The notes under the pieces: model-generated
Database searches by the model: none
What the model saw: the letters and a program-made list of their open reading frames with translations, nothing else
What the model was told of the DNA's origin: nothing
DNA from: Dehalococcoidia bacterium
GTDB lineage: Bacteria; Chloroflexota; Dehalococcoidia; Bin125
Reading direction: 5' to 3'
NCBI GenBank assembly: GCA_965217625.1
Contig: OZ244557.1
Coordinates: 1,601,422-1,665,421, forward strand
DNA length: 64,000 nucleotides
Program-made: the position numbers and the translations under genes
Shown here: piece by piece, positions 6,674 through 47,646 of the stretch
Layout of the letters: each line of letters begins with the position of its first letter
How positions within the stretch are numbered: the first letter of the stretch is position 1

Positions 6674-8011
6674 TCAGCCCGCGCCGAGGGCGCGCAGCGC
6701 GATCGCTTCCGCCAGACAGGCGCGCTCCAGGTCGGCGAGATCCTGGCTCTCGTCGGGGCCGTGAATTTGGCTGGTTGGGTCGCCGGCGCCGGTGAGCAGG
6801 ATCGTCGCCCCCGGCGACGCGGCCTGAAACGCGCCGACGAAGGGGATCGAGCCGCCGATCCCGATCTCCACGGCGGGACGCCCCCAGGCCTCCGCGAAGC
6901 CGGCACGGAAGGCGTCGTAGGCGGGGCCGTCCGTCTCGAGCGCGACGGGCGCCGCGCTGGCGCCCGGCCTGACCGATACGGTCGCGCCCCACGGGCGCTG
7001 CGCCGCCAGGTGCGCGACCAGCGCCGCCATCGCGCGAGCGGGGTCGTCGCCCGGGGCCAGGCGTACGCTGACCTTGGCGCGTGCGACGGGCACAAGCTGA
7101 TTGATCGCTTCGGCGACGGGCGGCGCGTCGATGGCGAGCACGGAGATCGCGGGCTGGCTCCACGTCCGCGACGTCAGCGGGCCGTCGCCGATCAGGCGGG
7201 TCTCCTCCGCCGCGCCCGCCTGTTCGCGCAGCTCCGCCTCGGCGAGGTTCAGCCCGTCCGATTGGCGGGAGACCAGCCCGGCGACGGCGGGCCGTCCGGC
7301 GTCGTCGTGGAGCGAGGCGAGCACGCGGGCGAGGGCCATCAGCGCGTCCGGGAGCACGCCGCCGAAGAGTCCGCTGTGGACGCCCTGCCGCAGCGTGCGT
7401 ATCTCGACTTCGCAATCGACGAGGCCCCGCAGCGTTGTCGTGAGGGCGGGCTCGCCGACGCGCCAGTTGGCCGAATCGGCGATCACGATGACGTCGGCGG
7501 TGAGGTCGGCGGCGTAGCGCGTGAGGAAGTCCGCCAGGTGCGCCGAGCCGATCTCCTCCTCGCCCTCGACGAACAGCTTGACGTTGACCGGCAACTCGTC
7601 GCCCAGCGCGCGCAGCGCGCCGAGGTGGACGGCGATGCCGGCCTTGTCGTCGGAGGCGCCCCGGCCGAACAGGCGTCCGCCGCGCTCGACCGGCTGGAAG
7701 GGGTCCGACGTCCATTGCGCAAGGTCGCCGGGCGGCTGTACATCGTGGTGGGCGTAGAGCAGCACGGTGGCCCGGTCGTCGCCGCTGTGGCGCTCTCCCA
7801 GGACGGCGGGGTGCGCGCCCTCGACCTCGAGCAGGTGCACGTCGCGGAGGCCCGAATCGCGCATGAGTTGAGCGGTGGCCAGCGCCGAGCGACGCACGTC
7901 CGCGGGATCGAAGCCACCAGCGCTGACCGAGGGGATGCGGACGAGGCTCTCCAACTCCGCCCGCGTGCGGGGGAAGCCGGCGGCGATGCGGGCGCGAAGG
8001 TCGTCGTGCAT
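6674..8011 (-). CDS. M20/M25/M40 family metallopeptidase (dipeptidase)
   Basis: YAHHDVQP, GRGASDDK, EGEEEIGS and HGPDES metal-binding motifs. Confidence 0.92.
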   Translation of the reverse strand: MHDDLRARIAAGFPRTRAELESLVRIPSVSAGGFDPADVRRSALATAQLMRDSGLRDVHLLEVEGAHPAVLGERHSGDDRATVLLYAHHDVQPPGDLAQWTSDPFQPVERGGRLFGRGASDDKAGIAVHLGALRALGDELPVNVKLFVEGEEEIGSAHLADFLTRYAADLTADVIVIADSANWRVGEPALTTTLRGLVDCEVEIRTLRQGVHSGLFGGVLPDALMALARVLASLHDDAGRPAVAGLVSRQSDGLNLAEAELREQAGAAEETRLIGDGPLTSRTWSQPAISVLAIDAPPVAEAINQLVPVARAKVSVRLAPGDDPARAMAALVAHLAAQRPWGATVSVRPGASAAPVALETDGPAYDAFRAGFAEAWGRPAVEIGIGGSIPFVGAFQAASPGATILLTGAGDPTSQIHGPDESQDLADLERACLAEAIALRALGAG

Positions 8012-13529: not shown

Positions 13530-14525
13530 CTAGCGCAGCAGCGACTCCAGGTACGCGCCGACTGTCGCCGTGTCGCCCGGGGGCAGTTGCACCATCTGCA
13601 ACTCCGCGCCCAGGGTGGCGCGCTCCTGCAGCTGCTCGCGCACCGACTCGATGGGTCCGATGACCTGGATCTCGCGCACCATCGCGTCCGTGATCGCGGC
13701 GATCGAGCCGGCCTTGTCGCGCTGCGCCCAGGCGTCGCGGGAGGCCTTGACCTCGGCCGCGAAGCCCTCCCGCGCGAGCATCTGCCAGTAGAACGTGCCC
13801 ATCCGGTTGACGTAGAAGTGCAGCGGCGCGCGGGCCGCCTGCCACTGGACATCGTCGTTGCGGCCGTCCGTCACGTACACGTTCGTGGACGGCGCGATGG
13901 TGACGCAGCCGGCCTCGCGGCCGGCCCCGGTCGCGGCGTCGTCCAGCCGCTCACGCAGGCGGGCGAACTGCCCCTTGGGCCAGTGGATGGGGTAGATGCC
14001 GTCGGCGATCTCGCCCGTCTGCACGATCGACTTCGGCGTGATCGCGGCGATGTAGACGGGGATCTTGCTGCGCGGCCGCGGGTAGTCGAGCCGGAAGCCG
14101 CCCGCCAGCTTGAAGATCTCGCCTTCGTAGTGCAGCGCCTCGCCGGCGATCAGCAGGTTGAAGATCTCCGTGTACTCCCGCAGCCGCTGCAGCGGCCGCT
14201 CGAAGGGGACGCCGTGGAAGTGCTCGATGACCTGCGCGCCGGAGGAGCCCAGGCCCATGACCATGCGCCCGCCCGAGATCTGGTCGAGCAGGGCGATCTC
14301 CTGCGCCGTCACCGCCGGAGAGCGGGAGAAGCAGTTGAGGATGGTGGGGCCCAGCTTGATCTTCTCGGTGTTGGCCGCCAGGAGCGTCAGCCAGGGCAGC
14401 ACCGACGTGCCCCAGGCCTCGCCGCGGCCGGCCAGCTCATAGCCCAGATCCTCGGCGATGCGGACCTTCGCCACCGAGTCCTGCCAGTCGGCGGAATCCA
14501 GTCCCGCGAGTACGCCCAGACGCAT
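13530..14525 (-). CDS. LLM-class oxidoreductase, probably F420-dependent
   Basis: EAWG, RSPAVTAQ, LDQISGGRMVMGLGSSG...VIEHFHG, GEIADG. Resembles Mer-like F420 LLM subfamilies. Confidence 0.85.
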   Translation of the reverse strand: MRLGVLAGLDSADWQDSVAKVRIAEDLGYELAGRGEAWGTSVLPWLTLLAANTEKIKLGPTILNCFSRSPAVTAQEIALLDQISGGRMVMGLGSSGAQVIEHFHGVPFERPLQRLREYTEIFNLLIAGEALHYEGEIFKLAGGFRLDYPRPRSKIPVYIAAITPKSIVQTGEIADGIYPIHWPKGQFARLRERLDDAATGAGREAGCVTIAPSTNVYVTDGRNDDVQWQAARAPLHFYVNRMGTFYWQMLAREGFAAEVKASRDAWAQRDKAGSIAAITDAMVREIQVIGPIESVREQLQERATLGAELQMVQLPPGDTATVGAYLESLLR

Positions 14526-34560: not shown

Positions 34561-35586
34561 GTGAACTACTTCGGTTCATATCGACGGCTGCGGGACAACG
34601 CGAAGTCAGCGATCACGGCTGCGATTGAGGTCTACAACAAGCCGCGGTTTCCCTATCGCGATGAAGTGTTCATCATCCTTCTTCTCAACGGATGGGAGCT
34701 GTTGATCAAGGCGCTTCTTTCGAAGAAGCGTGTATCCATCTACTACCCAAAGAAACGTAGGCAGCCCTACCGGACGCTTGGGCTCACTCAGGCCTGCAAT
34801 CGCGCAGTCGCGAATGGGGCGTGGCCGGCCACGATCCGATCCGAGGCAGTCCTTGCGAATCTTCAGCAGCTGACGGTGTATCGAGACGGGGCAGTCCACT
34901 TCTACAACGCGCCGGGGTTCGAGATCTTGATCTACAGCCTCTCCCAGACTGCGATCACCAACTTCCGTGACGTGCTTCGCGATTCGTTTGGGTACGAGCT
35001 TGCGGATGAGATCGGCTGGCGAATCCTACCGCTTGGGACCGAGCCGCCTGTCGATCCGATCGCATATCTGAGTGGAGCCCGAAAGGGGGGACGGGCGACC
35101 CAGACCGCGGTCAATCGCTTCTTGACGGGATTGCAGGCGAGGATGCGGCAACTCGACGCCGTCGGCGTGTCGACTCAGCGCCTTCTCACCATCCACGACG
35201 TGGCGCTCCAGTCGGTGAAGAAGGTGGAGCATGCAGACGTAGTCATAGGTGTTGACGCCTCAGTCGGCGGTGGGAACCCGGTCCTCATCGAACGCCCAAC
35301 CGATCCGAAGCTGTCGCATCCCCTCCGCCAGAATCAACTGCTCAAGGAGGTGGGAGAGCTGCACGGGAAACTCTTCACGTCGTGGGACTTCTACGCGGTC
35401 CGCGAGCACTTGGGCCTGGGGACGCAGCAGCATCTGTGCTACCGGGACGAGGAGGTCGGATTGACGCGGTGGTCGAGGGCAGCGGTCTCCGTCATCAAGC
35501 GACTACCGCGAACTGAACTGGGGGCGGCGCGAGAGGCACACCGCTCACACCTCCGCGAACGACGACGGCAAAGGAACGCGAACTAG
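34561..35586 (+). CDS. DUF3644-domain (HEPN-like) protein
   Basis: AAIEVYNKP...NGWELLIKA signature and R-x4-H motif RDGAVH. More AT-rich codon usage. Confidence 0.8.
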   Translation: MNYFGSYRRLRDNAKSAITAAIEVYNKPRFPYRDEVFIILLLNGWELLIKALLSKKRVSIYYPKKRRQPYRTLGLTQACNRAVANGAWPATIRSEAVLANLQQLTVYRDGAVHFYNAPGFEILIYSLSQTAITNFRDVLRDSFGYELADEIGWRILPLGTEPPVDPIAYLSGARKGGRATQTAVNRFLTGLQARMRQLDAVGVSTQRLLTIHDVALQSVKKVEHADVVIGVDASVGGGNPVLIERPTDPKLSHPLRQNQLLKEVGELHGKLFTSWDFYAVREHLGLGTQQHLCYRDEEVGLTRWSRAAVSVIKRLPRTELGAAREAHRSHLRERRRQRNAN

Positions 35587-35625
35587 ACCGGGTAGCGCGC
35601 CCACGCCGCCGACGACCCCGACCCT

Positions 35626-36501
35626 CTACGCCTGGAACGACGCCAGGACCTTCCGATACGCCTCCAGGTTCGACGACGGCGCGACATCCTGCTGGGCGGG
35701 ACCGGCGGCATCGGCGAGGGGCGCGTCTTCGTTGACGAAGAGCAGGCCCGTGGGCACGTGCCCCTCCTGGTCGAGGGCCAGCAGACGCGTGAAGACGCCG
35801 CCCCGGTCGTGGGGGTCGTAGCCGGGCATGCGCTCAACATCGACGAGGTGCGAGGGCCACTCGTGGTAGCGGTCGTTGTACGCCACGCAGGGCGAGATGA
35901 CCTCGAGGAAGGCGAAGCCGCGACCGCTGTTGGCGTGGACGATGGCGGCGTCGGTGAGCCGCTCCAGCTGGTCACCGTCGCCCGAGTAGCTGCGCGCCAG
36001 GAAGGTCGTGGCGGGGATGCTGAGCCCCAGCATCACCGGGTCGACCTGCTCGCGGGCCGCGAAGCCCTTGAACCCGCCCTGGCTCGTGGGCGAGGCCTGG
36101 CCCTTGGTGAGCCCGTAGGTGCTGTTGTTCATGATGATGTAGGCGATCGACGGGTTGTTGCGGAACGTGTGCATCAGGTGCCCGCCGCCGATGGCGAGGC
36201 CGTCGCCGTCGCCGCCGGCCGCGATGACGGTCAGCTCCGGGTTGGCCATCTTGGCCCCCGCGGCGCTGGGCAGGGCGCGGCCGTGCAGCGCGTGGTAGCC
36301 GTAGGCCCGCACGTGATTCTGGACGGTGCCCGAGCAGCCGATGCCGGCGACGATGAGCGCGTCCTTGCCGTCGATGCCGAGCCGCCCGAAGGCGCCATCG
36401 AGGGCGTTGAGCACGCTGAAGTGGCCGCAGCCGGCGCACCAGATGGTGTCCTTGATGGGGAAGGTCTGCGTCACACCGGGCTCGGTCGTCAGAGTGGTCA
36501 T
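35626..36501 (-). CDS. korB: 2-oxoacid:ferredoxin oxidoreductase beta subunit
   Basis: WCAGCG, GIGCS, LHGRALP, TPP motif GGDGDG, NNSTYGLTKGQASPT, SPCV. Confidence 0.92.
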   Translation of the reverse strand: MTTLTTEPGVTQTFPIKDTIWCAGCGHFSVLNALDGAFGRLGIDGKDALIVAGIGCSGTVQNHVRAYGYHALHGRALPSAAGAKMANPELTVIAAGGDGDGLAIGGGHLMHTFRNNPSIAYIIMNNSTYGLTKGQASPTSQGGFKGFAAREQVDPVMLGLSIPATTFLARSYSGDGDQLERLTDAAIVHANSGRGFAFLEVISPCVAYNDRYHEWPSHLVDVERMPGYDPHDRGGVFTRLLALDQEGHVPTGLLFVNEDAPLADAAGPAQQDVAPSSNLEAYRKVLASFQA

Positions 36502-36545
36502 GCGGCTTCCGTTCTCCGTCGCTGGGCGATGGCCGGCCCCGTGCC

Positions 36546-38330
36546 CTACTGCTGCCCGCAGTAGGCGGCGATGGGCCCCACGACATCGTTGGGGCGCATG
36601 GGCTCTCCGTCGAAGCGGAGCACATTCTCGATCTTGGACGCGTCGGCGCCCTCGCGGATGAAGAGCTTGGCCATCTGACCGCTGGAGTTCAACTCCACGA
36701 CGAAGACCCGGCGATGGCTGTTGATGAACTCGACCGTGTCCGGCATCACGGGCCAGAGGGTGCGCGGCTGGTGGTAGGCGACGCCGATGCCCCGCGCCGC
36801 CAGCCGCTCCAGCGCCTCCAGGATGGGGCCGAACGCCCCGCCGACGCCGATCACGCCGATCTCGGCGTCGGCGTCGCCCCAGAGGACAGACGAGGGCAGG
36901 TGGCCCTCGCGCAGCGCGGTCTCGATCTTGCGGTCGCGCTTGGCGACCATCGTCAAGCGGTTGCCCGGGTGCGTCGTGACGGTGCCGTCGGGGTAGCGCT
37001 CGTTGCCGGTGACCAGCGACATGCCGTGGGCGGTGCCGGGCACGGTGTAGGGCGAGACGCCGTCGGCGGTGACGGCGTAGCGGTCGTAGCGGTCGAGGGC
37101 GTCCACTTCTTCCTGACTGAGGCGCTTGCCCCGGTCGATCTGGATGGCGTCCAGGTTGAAGGGCTCGATCGTGGCGAGGTTCTGGCAGGTGCCCTGGTCC
37201 ATCGCGACGTAGACGGGGATCTGGAACTGCTCGGCGAGGTTCGTCGCCTGGATGCCGATCTCGAAGCAGTCCTGCACGCTGCCGGGCGCGACCACGACGC
37301 GGGGGAAGTCGCCGTTGCCGCCGAAGCACATCAGGTTGATGTCGGACTGCTCGGGCTTGGTGGGCATGCCGGTGGAGGGGCCGCCGCGCTGGGTATCGAC
37401 GATGACGAGCGGGATCTCGCCGCTGCCCGCCTGGCTGACGCCCTCCTGCATGAGCGCGAGGCCGGGGCCGGAGGTCGCGGTCATGGAGCGCACGCCGGTG
37501 AGTGCGGCGCCGATCGCCATGTTGATCGCTGCCAGCTCGTCCTCGGCCTGCCGGGCGATGCCGCCGAACTGGGGCAGCCACTTCTGCAGCCAGTCCAGGA
37601 TGTCGGTGGCCGGCGTGATGGGGTAGCCGGTGAAGAAGCGCCCCCCGGCGACGAGGAAGCCGAAGGCCAGCGCGTCGTTGCCGGTGAGCTGGATGCGCTC
37701 GCTGCCGTGCCGCTGCGTGACGTTGTAGAGGCCCTCGCCCACCTGCATCGCTTCGGCGGCCCCGAAGCCCAGGTCCAGCGCGCGCAGGTTGTAGCCCAGG
37801 ATGGGCTGGCCCAGGCGATTGAAGCGGGTGCGCACGGCGTCGCGGACTTCGTCATCGGGGATGCCGAGCGCGCGCGTGACGATGCCGGTGGCGACCATGT
37901 TCTTGTAGAGCGTGCGGCCCAGGTCGCGGACGGCGTAGCGGCCCATGGGCGCGGCGAGCAGGCGTGCGCCGTCGGGCAGCAGGCCCGCCGGCAGATCCCC
38001 CTCGGAGCTGTCGAAGACGACGACGGCGTCGTGCGCGAGGCGGGGGGCGGCGCGGCGGACGCCCTGCTCCTCGAACGCCACGACGATCTCCAGGTGGTCG
38101 CCCATGGCGTGGCGCTCGGGGGCGGAGGCGCGCAGCGAGGCGGCGGCGTAGCCGCCCTTGATCCGGGAGAGCACGTCGCGCTCGGTGTAGACGTGCAGGC
38201 CGTCGCGACGCAGCAGGTCGGCCAGGACCGTGGTGACGGTGAGCGAACCGTCGCCGCCCTGGCCGGAGCAGATCACGTTCAGGTCGTCGATGTGGCGGGC
38301 CGTGAAACGGGGCGCGTCGATGGTGGTCAT
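36546..38330 (-). CDS. korA: 2-oxoacid:acceptor oxidoreductase alpha subunit (gamma-alpha fusion)
   Basis: GQGGDG, YPITPAT, AEDELAA, TSGPGL, QRGGPSTGMPT. Confidence 0.92.
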   Translation of the reverse strand: MTTIDAPRFTARHIDDLNVICSGQGGDGSLTVTTVLADLLRRDGLHVYTERDVLSRIKGGYAAASLRASAPERHAMGDHLEIVVAFEEQGVRRAAPRLAHDAVVVFDSSEGDLPAGLLPDGARLLAAPMGRYAVRDLGRTLYKNMVATGIVTRALGIPDDEVRDAVRTRFNRLGQPILGYNLRALDLGFGAAEAMQVGEGLYNVTQRHGSERIQLTGNDALAFGFLVAGGRFFTGYPITPATDILDWLQKWLPQFGGIARQAEDELAAINMAIGAALTGVRSMTATSGPGLALMQEGVSQAGSGEIPLVIVDTQRGGPSTGMPTKPEQSDINLMCFGGNGDFPRVVVAPGSVQDCFEIGIQATNLAEQFQIPVYVAMDQGTCQNLATIEPFNLDAIQIDRGKRLSQEEVDALDRYDRYAVTADGVSPYTVPGTAHGMSLVTGNERYPDGTVTTHPGNRLTMVAKRDRKIETALREGHLPSSVLWGDADAEIGVIGVGGAFGPILEALERLAARGIGVAYHQPRTLWPVMPDTVEFINSHRRVFVVELNSSGQMAKLFIREGADASKIENVLRFDGEPMRPNDVVGPIAAYCGQQ

Positions 38331-39631
38331 ACGATGCTCCCATTGCCGTTCCCGGCGGCGGCGGCGCGGGCGGCGGCTTCCTCTTCCGCCTTCTTCTTCA
38401 TCTTCGACAGGCGGAAGCCCTTGGGGTCCATCTGACCGGTCTCGCGGCGCTCCTGCACGGTGGGCAGCAGCGGCGGCGGCAGCTTGTCGCGCTTGTAGCC
38501 CGACAGGCGCTGCAGCAGCGGCTTGCTGCGCGGCGCGTCCGAGACGGGGCGGGTCTCCAGCCAGCCGTCGTCGAGGCAGGCCTGGAAGGCCTCGTGCCCG
38601 GCCTCGGTGCGCACGACGGTGTAGGTCCAGCCGTCCAGCCCGATGCCCCCGGCGCCGATGTCGGCCTGATCGGTGGCGTAGTCCTGGCAGTAGAGGCAGG
38701 CCGGGCGGGCGTACTGCTGGAACTCCTTCAGCGACCGCTGCTCGACCACGCCGTCGGTGAAGCGGATGATCACCTTGCCCTTGATGTTGATGTTGTCGAT
38801 CTCTTTGCGGTCGCGGCCGTAGTCGCGCGCCAAGGCGGCGATCGACTCGTGCGTGAAGGCCTCCGAGCAGAACAGCCCCAGCACGAGCTTGATGTTCTCG
38901 CGGTACCACTTGTTCATCGCCAGGCGGATGCCGGAGTGCTGCTGCTGCCGCACGCCGTCGACCTGGCAGGGCACGCCGACCACGGCGATCGGCTTGATGT
39001 CCTTCTCGATCGCCTCGCTCAGGGCCACGGTGTTGGGCGAGTAGGTGTAGCGCGATCCGCGCGCGTTCAGGATCTCGTCCGGCGTGGTGGCCAGCAGCTG
39101 TGTTCCCACTTGGGGGTCGTGCGGGAGGATGTCGCCGATGACGGCGCCCTTGATGCCGCCCTGCTCCAGTTGGTGCAGCAGGATGGCGCTGATAAGCCCC
39201 CCGTCCTGGGCGCGGGCCGCGATCTCGGGCTTGGTCGCGCGGACCAGGCACTCGTAGGCGTAGACGCCGTAGCCCTCGTCGAGCTTGGGCTCGCGGTAGT
39301 GCATGACGTCGGCGATCGTGTGGTCGGGCGGGCTGAGCACCGGGCAGACGTCGGCGCAGAGCACGCAGTGCACGCAGGCATCGGGGCGGGTGTCCACCGG
39401 CTCCTCGCCCACGTAATCGAAGACGTCGGTGGGGCAGATCGTGACGCAGGCGGCGCAGCCGACGCACTTGCCCGTGTCGACGACCTCGCGCATGAGGAAG
39501 TCGTAGGCGTCGAAGCCGCCGCGGTTGATCTCCGTGCGCCAGGCGAAGGCCCACTCGGAGGGGGGCGTGCCGCCGTCGACGAGGGATCGGTAGCGAGCGA
39601 GCACCGCGTCGGAGCGTGCCAGATCGACCAT
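38327..39631 (-). CDS. FrhB/FpoF-family (F420 hydrogenase/dehydrogenase beta-type) flavoprotein with N-terminal 2x[4Fe-4S] ferredoxin domain
   Basis: CVGCAACVTICP and CVHCVLCADVCP; QDGG, GSRYT, VGVPCQ, GLFC, ACLYCQD, ADIGAG. ATGA overlap with korA. Confidence 0.9.
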   Translation of the reverse strand: MVDLARSDAVLARYRSLVDGGTPPSEWAFAWRTEINRGGFDAYDFLMREVVDTGKCVGCAACVTICPTDVFDYVGEEPVDTRPDACVHCVLCADVCPVLSPPDHTIADVMHYREPKLDEGYGVYAYECLVRATKPEIAARAQDGGLISAILLHQLEQGGIKGAVIGDILPHDPQVGTQLLATTPDEILNARGSRYTYSPNTVALSEAIEKDIKPIAVVGVPCQVDGVRQQQHSGIRLAMNKWYRENIKLVLGLFCSEAFTHESIAALARDYGRDRKEIDNINIKGKVIIRFTDGVVEQRSLKEFQQYARPACLYCQDYATDQADIGAGGIGLDGWTYTVVRTEAGHEAFQACLDDGWLETRPVSDAPRSKPLLQRLSGYKRDKLPPPLLPTVQERRETGQMDPKGFRLSKMKKKAEEEAAARAAAAGNGNGSIV

Positions 39632-39723
39632 CGTCATCTCCCCGTCACGACGCCGCGCCGCGCATTCCAGTGCCCCACGGGCGTGCAGCACCGGCCAGTC
39701 GCGCCGCGCGCAATTCTGGCACA

Positions 39724-39744
39724 GTGGCGAAACGGTATCGCCAC
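39724..39744. promoter_or_regulatory. Palindrome GTGGCGA-N7-TCGCCAC in the divergent promoter region (candidate operator)
   Basis: Perfect 7-bp inverted repeat between the FrhB-kor operon and uppP. Confidence 0.4.
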
Positions 39745-39872
39745 GCTGGGGTTTTGTCACGTACTCCGGCGACTTCCGCCCCGCGCGGCGGCGGTGGTCC
39801 CAGCGCGCCGCGCGCGAGACGATGGACGCGCGCCGCGTCCGCCGGTGCGAGGGAAGGGCGGCCGTACAGCCG

Positions 39873-40703
39873 ATGTCGATTCTGGAGGTCGTCGTTCTCG
39901 CCATCGTGCAGGGGGTGACGGAGTTCCTGCCGGTGAGCAGCAGCGGGCACCTGGTCCTGGGGGCCTGGATCCTGGGCGCCGACGATCCCGGCGTCGCCTT
40001 CGACGTCGCAGTGCACGTGGGCACGCTGCTGGCGCTGCTGGTCGTGTTCCGGGCGGAGTGGTGGGCGATCGCACTGGGTCTCGTGGGACGGGGAGCGGCC
40101 GGGGCGGGGGGCGCGGGGAGCAGCGGGCTGCCCCCGTCGCGACTGCTGACGCTGGTCATCCTGGGGACGCTGCCCCTGGCCGTCGTGGGCCTGGCCGTGC
40201 GCGACGCGCTGGACGGCCCGCTGCGCGACCCGACCTGGGTGGGCGCGTTCCTGATCGGCACGGGCGTGATGCTGTGGGCCGCCGACCGCTTCGGCCGCCG
40301 CACGCGGGCGCTGGCGACGATCGGGGCGCGCGACAGCCTGCGCATCGGCGTCGCGCAGGCGGTGGCGGTGCTGCCGGGCGTCTCGCGATCGGGCATGTGC
40401 ATGGCCGCGGGGATGCTGCACGACGTGACGCGGGAGGGGGCGGCGCTGTTTGCCCTGTACCTGGCGGCGCCGGCGATCGGCGGGGCGGGGCTGTGGGCCG
40501 CCTACCAACTGGCGGCGGACGGCGCGGAGGCGGGCGTCGGCCTGGGCGAGATGGCGCTGGGGGCGGCGGTGTCGTTCGCGGTGGCGGTCGTGGCCATCCG
40601 GGGGCTGTTGGCGCTGGTGCGGGCGCACTCGCTGCGGGTGTTCGTCGTCTACTGCCTGGTGGCGGGCCTGGCGGTGCTCGTCGCGCGGGCGTCGGGCTTG
40701 TAG
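39873..40703 (+). CDS. uppP: Undecaprenyl-diphosphate phosphatase
   Basis: VQGVTEFLPVSSSGHL and PGVSRSG; multi-TM. Confidence 0.95.
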   Translation: MSILEVVVLAIVQGVTEFLPVSSSGHLVLGAWILGADDPGVAFDVAVHVGTLLALLVVFRAEWWAIALGLVGRGAAGAGGAGSSGLPPSRLLTLVILGTLPLAVVGLAVRDALDGPLRDPTWVGAFLIGTGVMLWAADRFGRRTRALATIGARDSLRIGVAQAVAVLPGVSRSGMCMAAGMLHDVTREGAALFALYLAAPAIGGAGLWAAYQLAADGAEAGVGLGEMALGAAVSFAVAVVAIRGLLALVRAHSLRVFVVYCLVAGLAVLVARASGL

Positions 40704-40728: not shown

Positions 40729-42081
40729 TCAGGGCAGGATCAGCTGCGACGGCCGCTCGAGGATGCCCTTCACGTCGCGCAGGAACTCCGCCGCCGGCGC
40801 CCCGTCGACGACGCGGTGGTCGATGGTGAGGCTGAGCGTCATGAACGAGCGCCGCTCCACGTCGTTGCTCTCGCCACGGAAGACGGGCCGCTCGCTGATC
40901 CGCCCCACGCCCAGGATCGCGGCCTGGGGCGGGTTGATGATCGGCGTGAAGACGTCGATGCCGTACATCCCCAGCGACGTCACCGTGAACGTGCCGCCCG
41001 TGAGGTCGTCGGGGCCCAGGCGGCGCTCGCGGGCCCGCAGCGCGAGGTCGGCGCTGATCGGCGCGAGTTCGTCGAGCGGCAGGGCGTCGGTGTCGCGGGT
41101 GACCGGGACGATGAGCCCCTCGTCGAGCGCGACCGCGAACCCGACGTGGATCTGCGGATGCAGCACGATCACGTCGTCGCGGAGTTCGGCGTTGAGGCGC
41201 GGATGCCCGCGCAGGGCCAGGGCGGCGGCCTTGATCACGAAGTCGGTGTAGGTGGGACGCAGCCCGCGGTCGGCCCAGAGGTCGAGCAGCTCGCGGCGCA
41301 GGGCCACCGCGCGCGTCATGTCGACGTCCGTCGCCATGGTCAGTTGCGCCATCTCCTGCAGCGAGGCGTGCATGCGGCCGCCGATGGTGCGTCGCATGCC
41401 GCGGTAGGGGAACGTCTCGGCGTCGGCCGGGGCCGCCGCCGCCGCCGCCAGCGCCGCCTCGACGTCCTCGACCACGATGCGCCCGCCGGGGCCGCTGCCG
41501 GTCACGGTCGCGAGGTCCAGGTCGTGCTCGCGGGCCAGCCGCTTGGCGGCGGGGGAGGCCTTCACGGGGCCCGCCGGCGCCGGGGGCGCTGCCGGCGCTG
41601 CCGCCGCCGCCTCGACGTCCGTCCGCAGGATGCGGCCGCCGACGCCGCTGCCGCGGATCGTCGCCAGGTCCAGGCCGTGCGAGGCGGCCAGCCGCTTGAC
41701 GGCGGGGGAGGCGCGTCCGGGCTCGCTGGGGGCGTCACCGGCTGCGCCGCCATCGGGAGCGGGGGCGGCGGCGGGCGCGGGGGCGCTCGCTGCGGCGGCG
41801 GGGGCTGGGGCAGTCGCCGGGGCGGCCACGGGGGCCGGCTCTTCGCCGGCGGCGAGGATCTGCGCGACGACGGCCCCGGCGTCCACGGTCTCGGTGGCGG
41901 CGACGAGGACGTGCAGCGTGCCCTCCGCCTCGGCCTGGACCTCGTAGTTGACCTTCTCCGTCTCGAAGGCGAAGAGCAGGTCGCCCGTCTGCACGGCGTC
42001 GCCCGATTGCTGGTACCACTCGGTGATCGTGCCCTCGACCATGGTCATGCCGAGCTTGGGAAGGATGACTGAGGTGGGCAT
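40729..42081 (-). CDS. acoC: Dihydrolipoamide acyltransferase E2 with two subunit-binding domains
   Basis: Lipoyl domain ETEKV, two ASPAxKRLA...GSGxGGRI repeats, catalytic DHRVVDGA. Confidence 0.9.
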   Translation of the reverse strand: MPTSVILPKLGMTMVEGTITEWYQQSGDAVQTGDLLFAFETEKVNYEVQAEAEGTLHVLVAATETVDAGAVVAQILAAGEEPAPVAAPATAPAPAAAASAPAPAAAPAPDGGAAGDAPSEPGRASPAVKRLAASHGLDLATIRGSGVGGRILRTDVEAAAAAPAAPPAPAGPVKASPAAKRLAREHDLDLATVTGSGPGGRIVVEDVEAALAAAAAAPADAETFPYRGMRRTIGGRMHASLQEMAQLTMATDVDMTRAVALRRELLDLWADRGLRPTYTDFVIKAAALALRGHPRLNAELRDDVIVLHPQIHVGFAVALDEGLIVPVTRDTDALPLDELAPISADLALRARERRLGPDDLTGGTFTVTSLGMYGIDVFTPIINPPQAAILGVGRISERPVFRGESNDVERRSFMTLSLTIDHRVVDGAPAAEFLRDVKGILERPSQLILP

Positions 42082-42085
42082 GGCG

Positions 42086-43066
42086 CTACTCCACGAAGAA
42101 TCCGGCCTCCCGCGCGGCGCGGAGGCAGGCGTCGATATCGACGACGGGCGGCCCCGCGCGGGTGAGCCGCAGTTGCGCGGTCTGTCCGTCGGCCAGGAAC
42201 ACCTCGCGCTCGCCGTCGAAGGCGAGCAGCGCGGGCCCGGTCAGGGGGACGATAGCAGCGATATCGAGTTGCCGGACCGCGTCGATCGGGACGGCGCGCA
42301 GCAGGCCCGGGGCGAGCGCCACGCGGACCGTGCCCGCGCCGCCGTCCCCGCCGATGCGGAGGTGCAGGCCGGCGTCGTCGCTCGGGCCGATCGACGTGAT
42401 CGACCCACCGATCGCGGCCAGGCCGACGGCCGCCGGATCGGCGCGGGTGAGGATGATCTCGCGCAGCGTGGCCGGGTCCCAGATCGCGCGGCTGCCCACG
42501 ATCGAGCCCGCCAGCACCGCCACGTCGATCAGCGCGACCTCCTGCCCGCCCGGCAGGCCGACCTCGATCAGCTTGCTGCGCGGCGCGACGGCGTCCGCAT
42601 CGACCCGGCCGGTCGCGATCGCGGCCGCGGCGAGCCCCGCGACGGTGCTCTCGCGCGCGCTGGGGAAGACGTTGTTCGTGCCCGTGGAGAGCGGGATGAG
42701 CGGGACGGCCGTCGTGCCCAGGGCGATGGCGCGGTTCGTGCCGTCGCCGCCCAGGCTGACGAGGCAGGCGGCCCCCTCCTCGGCCATGCGCCGTGCGGCG
42801 AGGGTGGTGTCCGATGCGACGCCCCGGAACGCGCCGCAGAGCGGCTCGAGCCGCAGCCGCAGTCCCTGGTCGCGGGCCGCGCGGGGCACCAGGTGCGACG
42901 TGTCGGGCATGTAGGGGACGCGCTCGACGCCGGCCGCGTCGAGCGCCCGCAGCAGCCGCCGGACGATGCGCACCTTCTCGTTGGTGCTGATGACCGAGGC
43001 GTGCGCGACCAGGCGCCGGATGTCGCGGCCGGCGGCGGGGTTCGCGATCAGGCCGACGCTGCCCAC
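42086..43066 (-). CDS. acoX: AcoX-like / NAD kinase-fold protein
   Basis: GLIANPAAGRDIRRLVA, LGGDGTNR, STGTNNVFP, DGERE. Confidence 0.85.
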   Translation of the reverse strand: MGSVGLIANPAAGRDIRRLVAHASVISTNEKVRIVRRLLRALDAAGVERVPYMPDTSHLVPRAARDQGLRLRLEPLCGAFRGVASDTTLAARRMAEEGAACLVSLGGDGTNRAIALGTTAVPLIPLSTGTNNVFPSARESTVAGLAAAAIATGRVDADAVAPRSKLIEVGLPGGQEVALIDVAVLAGSIVGSRAIWDPATLREIILTRADPAAVGLAAIGGSITSIGPSDDAGLHLRIGGDGGAGTVRVALAPGLLRAVPIDAVRQLDIAAIVPLTGPALLAFDGEREVFLADGQTAQLRLTRAGPPVVDIDACLRAAREAGFFVE

Positions 43067-43082
43067 GCGGCCGGCGACCCCG

Positions 43083-44060
43083 CTAGACGCGGGCAGGGAG
43101 GATCTCGTCAACGGCCGCGACGATGTCCTCCGCGCCGGGCAGCCAGACCTTCTCCAGGGCAGGGCTGAACGGGACCGGGCTGAACGGCGCGCCCACACGC
43201 TTGACGGGCGCGTCGAGGTAGTCGAAGGCCTGCTCCTGGATCGCGGCGGCGATCTCCGCGCCGAAGCCGCAGAACTGGACGCCCTCCTGCGCGACGACGG
43301 CCCGGCTCGTCTTCTGCACCGAGGCGATGATCGTATCCATGTCGAGCGGCGAGAGGGTGCGGGGATCGACGACCTCCACGCTGACGCCGCGCTCGGCCAG
43401 TTGGTCGGCGGCGCGCTGCGCCTGCGAAACCATGTGGCCCGTGGCGACGACCGTGACGTCGCTGCCCTCGCGCTTGACCTCGGCCACTCCCAGGGGGATG
43501 GCGTAGGGCTCGTCGGGGACTTCGTCCCGTAGGGCCAAGTTGCGCTTGATCACGATGAAGATCACGGGGTTGTCGTCGCGGATCGCGCTGATCAGGAGGC
43601 CCTTGGTGTCGTAGGCGCTCGACGGCATGACGACCTTGAGGCCGGGGATGTGGCAGAACCACGCCTCCAGGCTCTGGCTGTGCTGGGCGGCCATGCTGAA
43701 GCCCGCCCCGGCGGCGGTCGTGACGACGATGGGCAGCGTGGCCTTGCCGCCGAACATGTACTTCATCTTGGCCATCTGATTGACGATCTCGTCCATGCAG
43801 ACGCCCACGAAGTCCATGAACATGATCTCGATCACGGGGCGCAGGCCGGCCGCCGCCGCCCCCACCGCGAGCCCCGCGATGGCCGACTCGGAGATGGGCG
43901 TGTCGATGACGCGGTCGCCGTAGGACTTCTTCAGCCCCTGCGAGGTGCCGAAGGCGCCGCCCACGCTGAGATCCTCGCCGGCGAAGAAGATGTCGGGGTC
44001 GCGGGTCATCTCCTGGCTCAGCGCCTCGGGGACGGCCTGCGTGACGGATTTGATAGGCAT
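43083..44060 (-). CDS. acoB: TPP-dependent dehydrogenase E1 beta subunit (acetoin type)
   Basis: DTPISE, EIMFMDF, AAQHSQSLE. TGATG overlap with the alpha gene. Confidence 0.9.
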   Translation of the reverse strand: MPIKSVTQAVPEALSQEMTRDPDIFFAGEDLSVGGAFGTSQGLKKSYGDRVIDTPISESAIAGLAVGAAAAGLRPVIEIMFMDFVGVCMDEIVNQMAKMKYMFGGKATLPIVVTTAAGAGFSMAAQHSQSLEAWFCHIPGLKVVMPSSAYDTKGLLISAIRDDNPVIFIVIKRNLALRDEVPDEPYAIPLGVAEVKREGSDVTVVATGHMVSQAQRAADQLAERGVSVEVVDPRTLSPLDMDTIIASVQKTSRAVVAQEGVQFCGFGAEIAAAIQEQAFDYLDAPVKRVGAPFSPVPFSPALEKVWLPGAEDIVAAVDEILPARV

Positions 44061-45049
44061 CAGGCGTACGCTCCTTCCGCAGTTGGCTTGGTGTAGACAT
44101 CGTCGAGGAGGAAGGCGGGATCCGCGTGTGGGCTCGCTTCGGCGAAGTCCACGGCCTCCTCGATCCGCGCGCGCGTCTCCGACGTGATGCGGTCGATATC
44201 GGCCTGCGTGAGCACGCCCATCTCCACGAGCCGGCGGGGGAACTGCTCGAGCGGGTCGCGCGCCTTCCACGAGGCGACCTCGTCCGGGTCGCGGACCAGC
44301 TTGCCGAAGTCCACGCCGACGTGGTCGTAGTAGCGATAGGTCTTGCATTCGAGCAGCGTGGGGCCCTCGCCGCGGCGCGCGCGGGCGATGGCCTCGCCGG
44401 CCGCTTCGTAGACCGCGAAGGCGTCCATGCCGTCGACGGTCACGCCGGGCATGTCGTACGAGGCGGCGCGGTCGGCGATGTCGTCGATCGGTTGGTGGTC
44501 GGCCTGCCGGGTCCACTCGCCGTAGAGGTTGTTCTCGCAGACCAGGACGAGCGGCAGCCGGAAGAGCCCGGCCATGTTGGCCGCCTCGTGGAAGGTGCCC
44601 TCATTCGAGGCCCCGTCGCCGAAGAAGCAGACGGCGACGTTGCCGTCCTGGCGGTAGTGGCAGGCGAAGGCGGCGCCCAGCGCGATGGGCGGGCCGGCGC
44701 CGACGATGCCGTTGGCCCCCAGCATGCCCAGGTCGAGGTCGGCGATATGCATCGAGCCGCCCTTGCCCTTGCAGTAGCCGGTCGACCGGCCGAACAGTTC
44801 GGCGTACATGAACTTGGGGTCGCCCCCCTTGGCGAGCAAGTGTCCATGGCCGCGGTGCGTGGAGGTGATGAAGTCGTCGTTCGTGAGGTGGGTGCAGAGG
44901 CCCACCGCCACGGCCTCCTCGCCGCAGTAGAGATGGACCGCACCCTTCGTGCGGTTCTCCTGCATCAGCCGCCCGCAGCGCTCGTCGAACTCGCGGAGCA
45001 GGACCATGCGTTCGTACATCTGGCGGAGCGTGTCGGGGGCGATGTCCAT
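44060..45049 (-). CDS. acoA: TPP-dependent dehydrogenase E1 alpha subunit (acetoin type)
   Basis: HLYCGEEA, STHRGHGH, GKGGSMH, GDGASNEG...ENN. Confidence 0.9.
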   Translation of the reverse strand: MDIAPDTLRQMYERMVLLREFDERCGRLMQENRTKGAVHLYCGEEAVAVGLCTHLTNDDFITSTHRGHGHLLAKGGDPKFMYAELFGRSTGYCKGKGGSMHIADLDLGMLGANGIVGAGPPIALGAAFACHYRQDGNVAVCFFGDGASNEGTFHEAANMAGLFRLPLVLVCENNLYGEWTRQADHQPIDDIADRAASYDMPGVTVDGMDAFAVYEAAGEAIARARRGEGPTLLECKTYRYYDHVGVDFGKLVRDPDEVASWKARDPLEQFPRRLVEMGVLTQADIDRITSETRARIEEAVDFAEASPHADPAFLLDDVYTKPTAEGAYA

Positions 45050-45186
45050 GCTGTCTTTCCCAATCGGCGTCTGCCGAGAATCGGCGCCTCTGCGGCGCCT
45101 GGGGGTGGGCCATCGAAGGCTAGGCCGCGAGGCGGGCGGGCGTCAACGGGAAGCGTGGCCCGGCGAGCCCGCTGCCGGTCCCGACG

Positions 45187-46224
45187 CTACGGCAGCCCCA
45201 GCAGCACCTCCTCGGCGAACAGCCGCATCGACGCCAGGACGCGGTCGTGCGGGATGCGCCCGCCGAAGCTGAACCAGCCCATGATGTGCCCGCAGCGATA
45301 GCGCGCATGCAGATCGGTCAGGCGGCGCAGCACCGTCTCCGGCGTGCCGACCACCGTGTCCGTGGCGACGGCCTCCTCGAACGTCATCGAGGCGAAGCGG
45401 TCGATGCGGGCCGCGATCGGCGATCCCCCCGGCGGTCCCTCCGGCGAGTCCGCGCGGGCGAGGCGGGCCACCTCGTGGTAATAGCTCAGGTGCGACGCTT
45501 CGGCGTCGCGGCGCGCCAGCGCCTCGGTCTCCGCGACGTGGATCGGAACCAGCAGCGCGATGTCGCGTTCGGGTGCGTCGGGCAGGGCCGAGCGGTAGCG
45601 GCGGCTGCGCGCCTCGATCTGCTCCGGCGTGGCGGTGACGGTCGCCATCATCACGGGGATCTGCAGCGCGATGGCGGTCTCCACCGACTCATCGCTGTTC
45701 GCGGCCATGAGCAGCGGCGGGTGGGGCTGCTGCAGCGGCTTCGGCACGACGCTGACGCCGTCGTAGTGGAAGTGCCGCCCCCGGAAGCGCAGCGGCTCCG
45801 GTCCCCAGGCGCGCCGCATCACCTCCAGCGCCTCGGCGAAGCGGCTGCCCCGCTCCGCGACGTCGACACCGAAGCCGGCGTGGTGCTGTTGGCCGTGTCC
45901 CCGGCCGATGCCCAGCCGCAGCCGGCCCCCCGACAGGTGATCGAGCATCGCCGTCTCCTCGGCGAGGCGCAGGGGATTGTGCAGCGGCAGCAGCACGACG
46001 GCCGTGCCCAGGCCGATGCGCTGCGTGCGCTGCGACGCGGCGGCGGCGACCAGGAACGGCGAGGGCATGACGCCTCGCGTGGACTCGAAGTGCAGTTCCG
46101 CCAGCCAGGCCACGGAGAAGCCGAGCGTGTCGCCCAGCTCGATCTGGCGCAGCGTGTCCTCATAGCGGTCGCCGGGGCGCTGGTCGGGCCAGGCGGGCAG
46201 CTGGAAGAAGAGGCCGATCTCCAT
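45187..46224 (-). CDS. LLM-class flavin-dependent oxidoreductase (luciferase-like)
   Basis: WLAELHF, HNPLRLAEE, LDHLSGGRLRLGIGRG, PKPLQQPHPP. Confidence 0.9.
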   Translation of the reverse strand: MEIGLFFQLPAWPDQRPGDRYEDTLRQIELGDTLGFSVAWLAELHFESTRGVMPSPFLVAAAASQRTQRIGLGTAVVLLPLHNPLRLAEETAMLDHLSGGRLRLGIGRGHGQQHHAGFGVDVAERGSRFAEALEVMRRAWGPEPLRFRGRHFHYDGVSVVPKPLQQPHPPLLMAANSDESVETAIALQIPVMMATVTATPEQIEARSRRYRSALPDAPERDIALLVPIHVAETEALARRDAEASHLSYYHEVARLARADSPEGPPGGSPIAARIDRFASMTFEEAVATDTVVGTPETVLRRLTDLHARYRCGHIMGWFSFGGRIPHDRVLASMRLFAEEVLLGLP

Positions 46225-46286
46225 GCGCCGGAGTCTAGACTGCCGTCCGCGCCGCCCGCGCGCCCGGCCCGCGGGCGCCCGCCCGC

Positions 46287-47561
46287 CTACTTCAGCCCCG
46301 GTCCCGCCCCCGCGCCCGGCGTCCGCTGCGCTTCGACCTCGGCGATCGCGGCGTCGTCGAAGCCGAGGGCGCGCATGATCTCCGCGGTGTGCTCCCCCTG
46401 CTCGGCGAAGAGCGCTTTCGGCGACCCGGGCGTCTCGCTCAGCTGCACGGGGTTGCCGACCAGCTTGCGACGCCCCACGTGGGGGATCTCCTTCTCCACG
46501 ATGTAGCCGTTGGCCCGCGCCTGCTCGTCCGCCAGGACGTCCGCGTAATCGAAGACGCGCTGCGCGATGATCCCGTCGGGGTGGATCTCGAAGAAGTCCG
46601 CCCATTCGTCCGTGCGGCGGCGGCGCATGACCGCGGCGATCGCAGGTCGCAGCCGCAGGCGGATATCGTCGAGCTCCTCTTCGCTCGCATGCGGCAGGCC
46701 ATCCGCCGGATTGCGCTTCCGGGCGGTGTCCCAGCGCGGATCGTCGGCCAACTCCGGAGTGCGGCCGAACTCGCAAAAGGCCCGCCAGCTCTCGTCATCA
46801 CGGATCCCGAGGCAGAAGGCGCCGCCGTCGGCGGTCTCATAGATGCCCGTCATCTGGGGAGAGCCGGCGTGGTAGGCGCCCTCGCGCCGCAGCACGTGCC
46901 CCGTCACCGATGAGTGATTGATCTCCCAGCTCTGCATCCAGAGCAGCGCCCCGTAGGCGGACGTCGATACCTTCTGACCGGCGCCGGTCCGCTCCCGCGC
47001 GAGCAAGGCCGTGACGATGCCGAGGGCGAGCGCCATGGCGCCGCCGGTATCCCCGACGATCGCGCCGGGGATCAGGGGGGCGTCGCCGGGATGGCCGGTC
47101 ACGCTCGAGATGCCGCTGCGCGCCTGGGCGAACGAGTCGCTCATGCGGTTCTGGCGCGCCGGTCCGAGTTGCCCGAAGCCATTGGCGACGGCGTAGATCA
47201 GCCGCGGATGTCGTTCGTGCAGCGCTTCATACCCCACCCCCATGCGCTCGAGCGCCGGCTCGCGAAAGTTGCTGAGAAACACGTCGGCGCCGGCGATCAA
47301 GCGATCGACCACCTCGCGTCCGACCGCGGTGTGGATGTCCAGCGAGATCGACCGCTTGCCGGCGTTCACGCCGAGGAACTGGGTGCCGACGGCGGCCTCG
47401 GGCAGGCGATTCCCCACGCTGCGGTACCAACGGTTCGACTCGCCGCCCGGCGGCTCCACCTTGATCACGTCGGCGCCCAGGCCGGCCAGGAGCCCGCCCG
47501 CCGCCGGCCCCTGCACGGCCACCGACAGCTCCACCACGCGAATCCCCTCGAACGGCTCCAT
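46287..47561 (-). CDS. CaiB/BaiF family III CoA-transferase
   Basis: LGADVIKVEPPGGE, NAGKRS, catalytic Asp in IVGDTGG. Confidence 0.92.
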   Translation of the reverse strand: MEPFEGIRVVELSVAVQGPAAGGLLAGLGADVIKVEPPGGESNRWYRSVGNRLPEAAVGTQFLGVNAGKRSISLDIHTAVGREVVDRLIAGADVFLSNFREPALERMGVGYEALHERHPRLIYAVANGFGQLGPARQNRMSDSFAQARSGISSVTGHPGDAPLIPGAIVGDTGGAMALALGIVTALLARERTGAGQKVSTSAYGALLWMQSWEINHSSVTGHVLRREGAYHAGSPQMTGIYETADGGAFCLGIRDDESWRAFCEFGRTPELADDPRWDTARKRNPADGLPHASEEELDDIRLRLRPAIAAVMRRRRTDEWADFFEIHPDGIIAQRVFDYADVLADEQARANGYIVEKEIPHVGRRKLVGNPVQLSETPGSPKALFAEQGEHTAEIMRALGFDDAAIAEVEAQRTPGAGAGPGLK

Positions 47562-47646
47562 CGGCTCCCGCTCCAAACGCCCCTCCAAACGAAAGTTAGG
47601 TGAACGAACGCGCCCTCAGGTGGGGGTGGAGACCACAGCGCCCGCG

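Follow-up and report, generated by a model that had tools for sequence, protein, structure and literature searches.

A candidate bacterial 2-oxoacid:F420 oxidoreductase encoded by an FrhB-like gene and korAB in a Dehalococcoidia bacterium

A 64,000-nucleotide stretch from the genome of a Dehalococcoidia bacterium (GTDB lineage Bacteria; Chloroflexota; Dehalococcoidia; Bin125; assembly GCA_965217625.1, contig OZ244557.1, positions 1,601,422 to 1,665,421 of the forward strand), referred to below as the window, carries a module of three adjacent genes that encode an FrhB-like iron-sulfur flavoprotein and two subunits, KorA and KorB, of the 2-oxoacid:ferredoxin oxidoreductase (OFOR) type. Our analysis suggests, with moderate confidence, that the three proteins form one complex, a bacterial 2-oxoacid:F420 oxidoreductase whose substrate is probably 2-oxoglutarate. 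This reading rests on the domains and cofactor ligands of the three proteins, on their strict co-inheritance, and on the linkage of the module to F420-biosynthesis genes within the family.

An FrhB-like flavoprotein encoded with KorA and KorB

The minus strand carries the three genes in tandem, in the order FrhB-like gene, korA, korB. The FrhB-like gene (38327..39637) encodes 436 residues from the ATG at 39637 or 434 residues from the ATG at 39631; the latter has the better Shine-Dalgarno spacing since the sequence GGGGAG lies 6 nucleotides ahead of it. The stop codon of this gene overlaps the start codon of korA (36546..38330, 594 residues) as ATGA, read directly from the sequence, and 44 nucleotides separate korA from korB (35626..36501, 291 residues). 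The first-pass annotation of the window had described a protein with two CxxCxxCxxxCP motifs and full FrhB domains, overlapping korA and followed by korB, and all of these features can be read in the sequence or in the Pfam matches. The same annotation had noted the lack of a separate ferredoxin or delta subunit and of any hydrogenase, formate dehydrogenase or Nuo genes nearby. Indeed, no delta subunit or small ferredoxin gene is found within the operon, and hydrogenase, formate dehydrogenase and Nuo genes are absent from the 10 flanking genes scanned singly. A batch scan of another 35 open reading frames (ORFs) of the window gave 45 Pfam families, and the 25 of them that were listed include none of these enzymes either.

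The FrhB-like protein is a member of the FrhB/FdhB/FpoF superfamily (PF04422 + PF04432). It matches the Pfam families FrhB_FdhB_N over residues 132-206 (60.3 bits, cut-off 22) and FrhB_FdhB_C over residues 216-367 (121.1 bits, cut-off 23.3), which together make up the FrhB core (38537..39244, minus strand). A residue-wise alignment to the Methanothermobacter FrhB chain 3zfs_C locates in this core the flavin adenine dinucleotide (FAD) motif Q144-D-G-G147, the loop S195-R-Y-T-Y-S-P-N202, and four cysteines (C224, C257, C314 and C317) for one [4Fe-4S] cluster. In FrhB, the QDGG motif and loops 71-77 and 131-138 are described as surrounding the FAD, and Cys134 as ligating the adjacent [4Fe-4S] cluster (PMC3930138). 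The core is preceded by a ferredoxin-like domain with Fer4-type matches (39338..39484, minus strand; residues 52-100), whose two CxxCxxCxxxCP motifs (C58/C61/C64/C68-P69 and C88/C91/C94/C98-P99) are proposed to bind two [4Fe-4S] clusters. The eight ferredoxin cysteines, the QDGG motif, the SRYTYSPN loop and the four core cysteines are invariant in both family alignments, A1 (20 sequences) and A2 (31 sequences). The ferredoxin-like domain also bears a weak resemblance to delta-subunit models (TIGR02179 PorD_KorD, E 7e-6; OGOR_delta, E 4e-6), and Pfam finds no NAD(P)-binding domain in the FrhB-like protein.

Conserved segments flank these domains at both ends. The N-terminal family-specific segment (39485..39604, minus strand; about residues 12-51) has W29, A32-W33-R34, N38 and G40-G41-F42 invariant in both family alignments, and it lies outside the stretches that align to the FrhB chains 3zfs_C, 6qgr_B and 6qii_B; the PDB alignments begin at residue 124 for FrhB, or at residues 43-50 for 8riu_B, 8rja_E and Fsr. 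A possible role of this segment is to dock the flavoprotein onto KorAB. The C-terminal extension (38330..38536, minus strand) consists of a conserved part, residues 368-408 (L378, K382, P388, P392, R397 and P405), which is a further candidate docking element, and a variable tail, residues 409-436. The tail (38330-38413; KMKKKAEEEAAARAAAAGNGNGSIV) is rich in Lys, Ala and Glu, specific to the genus of the window, and variable across the family.

Within the superfamily, sequence comparison places the protein in a separate subfamily that is neither FrhB nor FpoF itself. Its best NCBIfam matches are to models of FrhB, but when compared with the equivalog models for FrhB proper and FpoF (TIGR03289, NF040616), it stays below the curated cut-offs (TIGR03289, 170.2 against 331.5 bits; FpoF, 107.2 against 475), as it does for PRK09325 (198.7 against 269). 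The closest PDB chains are 3zfs_C (FrhB, 1.2e-39), 8riu_B (2.4e-38), 8rja_E (8.8e-37) and 7np8_A (Fsr, 3.6e-34), and matches to HCAR (4e-12) and FdhB (4.6e-11) are far more distant. Thus, on the question of family placement left by the first-pass annotation, the protein falls far nearer to FrhB, Fsr and the zeta subunit of an F420-reducing carbon monoxide dehydrogenase (CODH), at 1e-39 to 4e-34, than to HCAR or FdhB.

KorA is the alpha subunit of a two-subunit 2-oxoacid:acceptor oxidoreductase (OAFO_sf) with the gamma domain fused to it. It passes TIGR03710 (558.4 bits, cut-off 482.75), matches POR (gamma) over residues 25-189 and POR_N over residues 228-402, and also has a PFOR_II match. KorB, the beta subunit, matches TPP_enzyme_C in Pfam (82.4 bits) and reaches 222.6 bits on TIGR02177, short of the curated cut-off of 261.9. 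The motif for binding thiamine diphosphate (TPP) in KorB, G97-D-G-D100 ... N125-N126, and the cysteines C22, C25, C56 and C205 for one [4Fe-4S] cluster are invariant in 31 sequences (alignment A4). The best PDB match of KorA is 6n2n_A (E 2.6e-99), and KorB matches 5b48_B (9.3e-49) and 6n2n_B (3.7e-46).

Counted from the sequence, the three proteins supply a full chain of cofactors, which runs from TPP through the single KorB cluster, the two clusters of the ferredoxin-like domain and the one of the FrhB core to FAD. In the mechanism we propose, KorAB would bind TPP and coenzyme A (CoA) and convert the 2-oxoacid to acyl-CoA and CO2, and the two electrons released would pass singly into the lone [4Fe-4S] cluster of KorB. 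The FrhB-like subunit would dock on KorAB through its N-terminal 2x[4Fe-4S] domain, which would replace the free ferredoxin or delta subunit and relay the electrons through the [4Fe-4S] cluster of the FrhB core to FAD; the FAD would gather two electrons and give a hydride to F420. Because the 2-oxoacid couple (about -500 mV) is much more negative than the F420/F420H2 couple (about -340 mV), the reaction would in effect be irreversible and operate one way, in the oxidative direction. The resulting F420H2 would feed the F420-dependent enzymes of the host that belong to the luciferase-like monooxygenase (LLM) type, or yield NADPH via Fno.

Co-inheritance of the three genes, and F420-biosynthesis neighbors in part of the family

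The FrhB-like protein belongs to a large and tight family. A word-based search recovers proteins of 410-450 residues with about 56-69% identity, and the source names in the family include Deltaproteobacteria, Dadabacteria, Myxococcota, Bipolaricaulota, Acidimicrobiia and, from culture, Egibacter rhizosphaerae, whose homologue is 56% identical. The gene order of the window is kept in all five close relatives (92-98% identity), and the family alignment, when run against metagenome contigs, yields 80 loci with 55-63% identity to the window protein. The conservation of the three-gene order, which the first-pass annotation had put forward as a check, can be followed across these loci: korA is directly downstream in 72/72 loci with at least 300 nucleotides available, and korB is next in 49/49 with at least 2100 nucleotides available. 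Clustering of the neighboring ORFs at the 80 loci reveals no other universal neighbor. Recurrence of this arrangement is far beyond chance. The three proteins also diverge together, as the pairwise-identity matrices of 31 loci correlate at r = 0.89 for FrhB-like versus KorA, 0.75 for FrhB-like versus KorB, and 0.84 for KorA versus KorB; the FrhB-like protein is the most conserved subunit, with a mean pairwise identity of 65% as against 56% for each Kor subunit. The strict order and the correlated divergence argue that the module is one co-inherited functional unit.

In a quick maximum-likelihood tree, 95 FrhB-like sequences fall into two clades: clade A, which includes the genus of the window, Myxococcota, Dadabacteria/Deltaproteobacteria and Bipolaricaulota, and clade B, of actinobacterial type, which includes Egibacter and Acidimicrobiia. 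The nearest branch to the genus of the window in this tree is of Myxococcota type (SH-aLRT support 91). Within the genus, the module is present in 6/7 genomes, the single miss being a genome that is 84% complete, and among the 301 class genomes searched, the module gene occurs in 0/17 of those that belong to the family's other genera. This pattern points to acquisition by the ancestor of the genus long ago. The third-codon-position G+C (GC3) of the three genes, 0.95-0.96, matches that of their neighbors and gives no compositional sign of recent horizontal transfer.

Other searches fill in the surroundings of the family. In a search of protein representatives clustered at 50%, the family reduces to one full-length representative with 58% identity and adds little; the same search gives 214 proteins at E <= 1e-30, 1735 at <= 1e-10 and 4253 at <= 0.001. 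More remote relatives, at 37-49% identity, are the proteins P0123-P0130, and a protein atlas search with a homologue also places FrhB-like clusters in Actinomycetota, Pseudomonadota, Thermodesulfobacteriota and archaea, which play no part in our argument. A metatranscriptomic run from a sponge metagenome (share of words 0.06) contains contigs about 91-98% identical to parts of all three module genes. As DNA may be present in such a library, and uncovered parts carry no meaning, these contigs are a weak hint, and no proof, that the module of a relative is expressed.

The neighbors of the module connect it to F420. When the neighbor ORFs of the 80 metagenome loci are clustered and the cluster representatives named by Pfam, the commonest neighbors are CofE (F420-0:gamma-glutamyl ligase; 16 loci), CofD (12 loci) and a CofC-radical-SAM-CofH_C fusion of the Fo synthase type (10 loci), and at least one of these is found in 20/80 loci. 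In clade B, cof neighbors occur in 18 of the 45 assessable loci and in at least four arrangements. In one of these, cofD-cofE is upstream and divergent and cofC-fbiC is downstream; in another, L101, L105 and L127 have frhB-korA-korB-cofD-cofE(-cofC-fbiC) on a single strand; L131 has cofE directly upstream on the same strand; and L096 shows a mixed form. The fact that the linkage outlasts such rearrangement suggests a functional coupling of the module and the F420 genes.

Substrate, electron acceptor and competing explanations

The substrate of the module is probably 2-oxoglutarate, judging from the sequence neighborhood and structural matches of KorA. The structure closest to KorA, 6n2n of the Magnetococcus marinus 2-oxoglutarate enzyme, has a counterpart, 6N2O, that is presented as a 2-ketoglutarate:ferredoxin oxidoreductase of the reverse tricarboxylic acid (TCA) cycle (PMC10176493), and a second KorA paralog of the host is less similar to 6n2n (E 1.7e-70). 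Among the 16 assessable clade-A loci, sucA lies 3' of the module in eight, with sucB as well in seven of these. As sucA (and sucB) encode 2-oxoglutarate dehydrogenase, two enzymes for the same TCA step would be encoded side by side at such loci. The query used recovered no SucA-type E1 from the host genome. The eight loci with sucA on the same strand after korB (L060, L067, L073, L080, L082, L121, L125 and L128) belong to the Dadabacteria/Deltaproteobacteria-type subclade.

The second paralog is part of a stand-alone korAB pair in the host genome (L133, G000:C1:2240000-2251000), which has no FrhB-like gene. Within this locus, korA2 (5041-6924, minus strand) and korB2 (3962-4993, minus strand) are 34% and 40% identical to the subunits of the module. 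They adjoin an LLM gene (2956-3894, plus strand) that passes the F420-dependent model TIGR03619 (171.1 against 166.9 bits).

The F420 metabolism of the host gives a divided answer to the genome check proposed in the first-pass annotation. On the one hand, cofD (302.7 bits), cofE (252.4) and cofC (158.5) are all above their curated cut-offs, fno passes its own, and the genome has 24 LLM-type matches. The LLM that the first-pass annotation had named as a possible user of F420H2 is encoded in the window (13530-14525, minus strand), and its best models are of the F420 class, although both TIGR04024 (210 bits, cut-off 345.4) and TIGR03559 (192 bits, cut-off 335) stay below cut-off. On the other hand, fgd is below cut-off and no Fo synthase was found. 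The presence of fno also means that the module is not the sole possible reducer of F420 in this host. Across the family, cofH is above cut-off in only 1/26 genomes while cofE is present in 17/17 genomes of the other genera, a combination which suggests that the host and its family salvage Fo or depend on an external supply of it. The host and almost the whole family retain cofC, cofD, cofE and fno.

Several observations weigh against F420 as the acceptor, and they bear above all on an alternative that keeps the same complex and the same wire and has the FAD reduce something else, such as NAD(P)+, a free flavin, a rubredoxin-like protein or a quinone. We regard this alternative, the main rival, as rather unlikely. 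Such an enzyme would resemble the pyruvate:NADP+ oxidoreductase of Euglena and Cryptosporidium or the NAD+-dependent phenylglyoxylate dehydrogenase (PadEFGHI), in which an OFOR core is combined with a flavoprotein module whose task is to convert the one-electron output of Fe-S clusters into a hydride for a diffusible two-electron cofactor. Their flavoprotein modules, however, are of different families, and NAD(P)+ serves as the acceptor.

The first of these observations concern the host and its clade. Fo synthase was not found in the host, where cofG (21.8 bits) and cofH (34.6 bits) give weak radical-SAM matches only, and a tblastn search of the host with a CofC-FbiC fusion matches cofC alone and no FbiC part. 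Each of the 17 family genomes outside the genus of the window has cofE, yet none has the module, which indicates that the module is dispensable for F420 metabolism in the family. All 20 loci with cof neighbors fall in clade B, as against 0/18 assessable loci in clade A, the clade of the window, and a Pfam batch scan of 82 clade-A neighbor ORFs gave just two LLMs. This gap is softened by a report that lists Dadabacteria, which are clade-A hosts by their source names, among the phyla that encode F420 biosynthesis (PMC8498797).

Distant relatives supply the second set. In the search of 301 class genomes, 42 other genomes hold FrhB-like homologues with 25-38% identity, and an OFOR gene lies within 1.5 kb in 17 of the 29 Dehalococcoidia loci with such genes that were fetched. 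At two of them, L134 (G153) and L135 (G078), Pfam identifies a pair of IorA-like (about 640 residues) and IorB-like proteins of the indolepyruvate oxidoreductase (IOR) type. Of these 42 genomes, only 9 have cofE, and cofD is also absent in 5/5 checked among those without it, each 97-100% complete. Thus, the pairing of FrhB-like and OFOR genes occurs in relatives that lack F420, and domain logic alone is no proof of F420 use. Similarity is no better a guide, since the IOR-linked G078 protein, from an F420-less genome, scores 196.3 bits on the FrhB model as against 198.7 for the window protein, and matches 8riu_B, a proven F420 reductase, at 6e-61 as against 2.4e-38 for the window protein. Similarity to FrhB models or PDB chains was for this reason rejected as a proxy for F420 use. 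Finally, FrhAGB of Thermococcus is reported to reduce rubredoxin (PMC13333549).

A residue-level test of the F420 pocket was also tried and set aside, because the Frh, Fsr and Ethanoperedens structures are without bound F420 and no discriminating residues can be defined from them. The FrhB and Fsr structures are reported to have an empty F420 pocket (PMC3930138, PMC10229431), a further point on the unfavorable side, and the Frh, Fsr and Ethanoperedens structure papers describe only an access channel or a positively charged surface.

The distant homologues are of interest in their own right. A second FrhB-like subfamily, with 25-30% identity, adjoins IOR-type genes at L027, L029, L031, L033-L037, L039, L041-L043, L045, L049, L050 and L052, and 13/16 loci with a korA-like match are in genomes without a cofE match. 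A class genome that is 54% complete has two FrhB-like genes with 36-38% identity, at L024 (G002:C111) and on G002:C164; at L024, the FrhB-like gene has a korB-like gene upstream of it, so that the FrhB-OFOR pairing is seen in a third gene order.

What nevertheless favors F420 over another acceptor is that cof genes are the commonest neighbors of the orthologous clade-B module, in several arrangements, and that clades A and B are 57-63% identical and share the same invariant cofactor residues. The genus of the host also keeps cofC, cofD, cofE and fno, and a reductase of NAD(P)+ would be at odds with the lack of an NAD(P)-binding domain. Taken with the complete cofactor sites and the gene order, the cof neighbors support the wire claimed in the first-pass annotation, from 2-oxoacid through TPP and Fe-S clusters to FAD and F420, as the best explanation of the module.

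The FrhB-like protein might instead be a co-expressed soluble carrier or enzyme that serves as a transient acceptor for KorAB, or acts in another pathway, without being a stable subunit. Two-subunit OFORs like those of Sulfolobus, Halobacterium and Magnetococcus do use free ferredoxins, which speaks for such a carrier. Free ferredoxins are likewise described as serving the two-subunit OFORs of haloarchaea (PMC8305020). We consider this explanation improbable, however, in view of the strict adjacency of the three genes at every assessable locus, the ATGA overlap between the FrhB-like gene and korA, the correlated divergence of the three proteins, and the conservation of family-specific N- and C-terminal segments that are absent from FrhB. 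Moreover, homologous modules are stable subunits of the CODH and Fwd complexes of Ethanoperedens (PMC11493965). Reverse operation, in which F420H2 would drive the reductive carboxylation of acyl-CoA and the module would act as a 2-oxoacid synthase for carbon assimilation, draws on the reversibility in principle of OFORs and on the presentation of the closest solved KorA (6n2n/6n2o) as a reverse-TCA enzyme (PMC10176493), but it is very improbable because F420H2 does not have enough reducing power for the 2-oxoacid couple, an argument also made for FrhB-PFOR clusters of ANME archaea (PMC9012536), and because the sucAB neighbors and the acyl-CoA catabolic context in the window suggest oxidative metabolism.

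Genomic surroundings, known systems and implications

The window has a G+C content of about 70% and comes from a 2.82-Mb single-contig genome that is 93.9% complete. Immediately downstream of korB is a DUF3644 gene (34561-35586, plus strand) of atypical composition (GC 0.61, and GC3 0.74 as against about 0.95 in its neighbors), possibly a foreign insertion. On the other side, uppP/BacA (39822-40703, plus strand) is divergent from the operon, and the intergenic region between them (39638..39821) is presumed to hold the promoter; a promoter and terminator scan of 35300-40000 found no sigma-70 consensus or terminator-like site. Upstream beyond uppP, a minus-strand stretch (40729-47588) encodes, in order, a 2-oxoacid dehydrogenase E2, an NAD-kinase-like protein, an ORF in the E1-beta position, an E1-alpha, an LLM and a family III CoA-transferase. 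The E1-alpha, E1-beta-position, NAD-kinase-like and E2 genes span 40729-45049; the E1-beta-position ORF (43108-44100) has no NCBIfam match at E <= 1e-8, and the LLM (45190-46290) is ambiguous between the FMN and F420 classes. The window as a whole is rich in genes of acyl-CoA metabolism, such as enoyl-CoA hydratases, acyl-CoA dehydrogenases and carboxylases.

The closest functional parallel is archaeal. In Ca. Ethanoperedens thermophilum, an anaerobic alkane oxidiser, the CODH complex (through its zeta subunit) and the Fwd complex (through FwdI) are shown to reduce F420 (8RIU, 8RJA; PMC11493965). The subunit responsible has the same build as the window protein, namely an N-terminal 2x[4Fe-4S] domain, an FrhB-type [4Fe-4S]/FAD domain and a C-terminal extension, and the window protein aligns to 8riu_B over residues 50-369 (E 2.4e-38) with about 30-35% identity, as read off the alignment. 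The Ethanoperedens subunit replaces a (poly)ferredoxin on a ferredoxin-dependent enzyme and diverts its electrons to F420 (PMC11493965), the role that we propose for the window protein. The partners differ, however, as they are CODH or Fwd in the archaeon and a predicted TPP-dependent OFOR in the window, and the window family carries a further conserved stretch of about 50 residues at the N-terminus. In the Ethanoperedens CODH, the C-terminal extension of the F420-reductase subunit is described as serving dimerisation (PMC11493965).

A second parallel comes from anaerobic methanotrophic archaea of the ANME-1 group, in which FrhB6 is found in gene clusters of pyruvate:ferredoxin oxidoreductase (PFOR) and FrhB7 with CODH, and oxidative decarboxylation is proposed to reduce F420 (PMC9012536). 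Like the window module, the FrhB6 clusters combine an FrhB paralog with OFOR genes and have been given the same one-way thermodynamic argument; they are, however, archaeal, of the PFOR type and not the two-subunit KorAB type, and a genomic prediction (PMC9012536).

The individual parts of the module have relatives of solved structure. The enzymes of Magnetococcus marinus (6N2N/6N2O) and Sulfolobus tokodaii (5B46-5B48) have the same fused gamma-alpha and beta subunits, with TPP, one [4Fe-4S] cluster and no delta domain, but they reduce free ferredoxin, whereas the operons of the window family always carry the gene for the FrhB-like flavoprotein. FrhB from F420-reducing [NiFe] hydrogenase (3ZFS/4OMF/4CI0, 6QGR) and the N-terminal half of Fsr (7NP8) belong to the same fold family as the window protein. 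FrhB shares with it the QDGG motif, the equivalent of loop 71-77 and the four cluster cysteines, and Fsr too has an N-terminal ferredoxin domain. Their partners, in contrast, are a hydrogenase and a sulfite reductase, and the window protein stays below the curated FrhB and FpoF cut-offs.

The statement in the first-pass annotation that no complex of this kind has been described stands for bacteria in the literature searched, which excluded subscription-only papers and contained no description of a bacterial FrhB-OFOR complex; the archaeal precedents (PMC11493965, PMC9012536) go against it in its general form. A 2021 review names Fno, Fgd and Adf homologues as dehydrogenases that reduce F420 in bacteria and states that no such enzyme had been studied experimentally in bacteria outside Actinobacteria, and it mentions neither FrhB nor pyruvate or oxoglutarate (PMC8498797). 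Similarly, a November 2026 review of PFOR diversity mentions neither F420 nor FrhB (PMC13768988), and a 2025 account of UBA5794 Acidimicrobiia describes korAB in place of 2-oxoglutarate dehydrogenase and, in the portion dealing with these genes, mentions no FrhB partner (PMC12008989). What is plausibly new, then, is a bacterial OFOR core with a bolt-on FrhB-type reductase, known so far from archaeal CODH and Fwd, where it is proven, and from archaeal PFOR, where it is predicted.

A broader proposal, on which we find the gene data evenly balanced, is that the module is a widespread bacterial 2-oxoglutarate:F420 oxidoreductase that wires the TCA cycle to the F420H2 pool in marine and host-associated Acidimicrobiia, Nitriliruptoria, Dadabacteria, Myxococcota and one genus of Dehalococcoidia. 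If so, the survey labels 'KOR (ferredoxin)' and 'F420 hydrogenase beta subunit' would have hidden the module, and lineages without 2-oxoglutarate dehydrogenase would use F420, and not NADH or ferredoxin, as a main electron carrier of the TCA cycle. The F420-less relatives with FrhB-like and IOR-type genes raise the related question of what FrhB-type modules reduce where there is no F420.

If a 2-oxoacid:F420 oxidoreductase is indeed what the module encodes, it would be a new source of electrons for bacterial F420, drawn from central carbon metabolism by a TPP- and Fe-S-dependent enzyme, and it could offer a cheap, 2-oxoacid-driven regeneration of F420H2 for biocatalysis. The principle of a bolt-on F420 reductase, shown only for archaeal CODH and Fwd, would then extend to bacteria and to the OFOR family, and models of TCA-cycle redox balance would change for abundant uncultured marine groups with korAB in place of 2-oxoglutarate dehydrogenase, such as the UBA5794 Acidimicrobiia.

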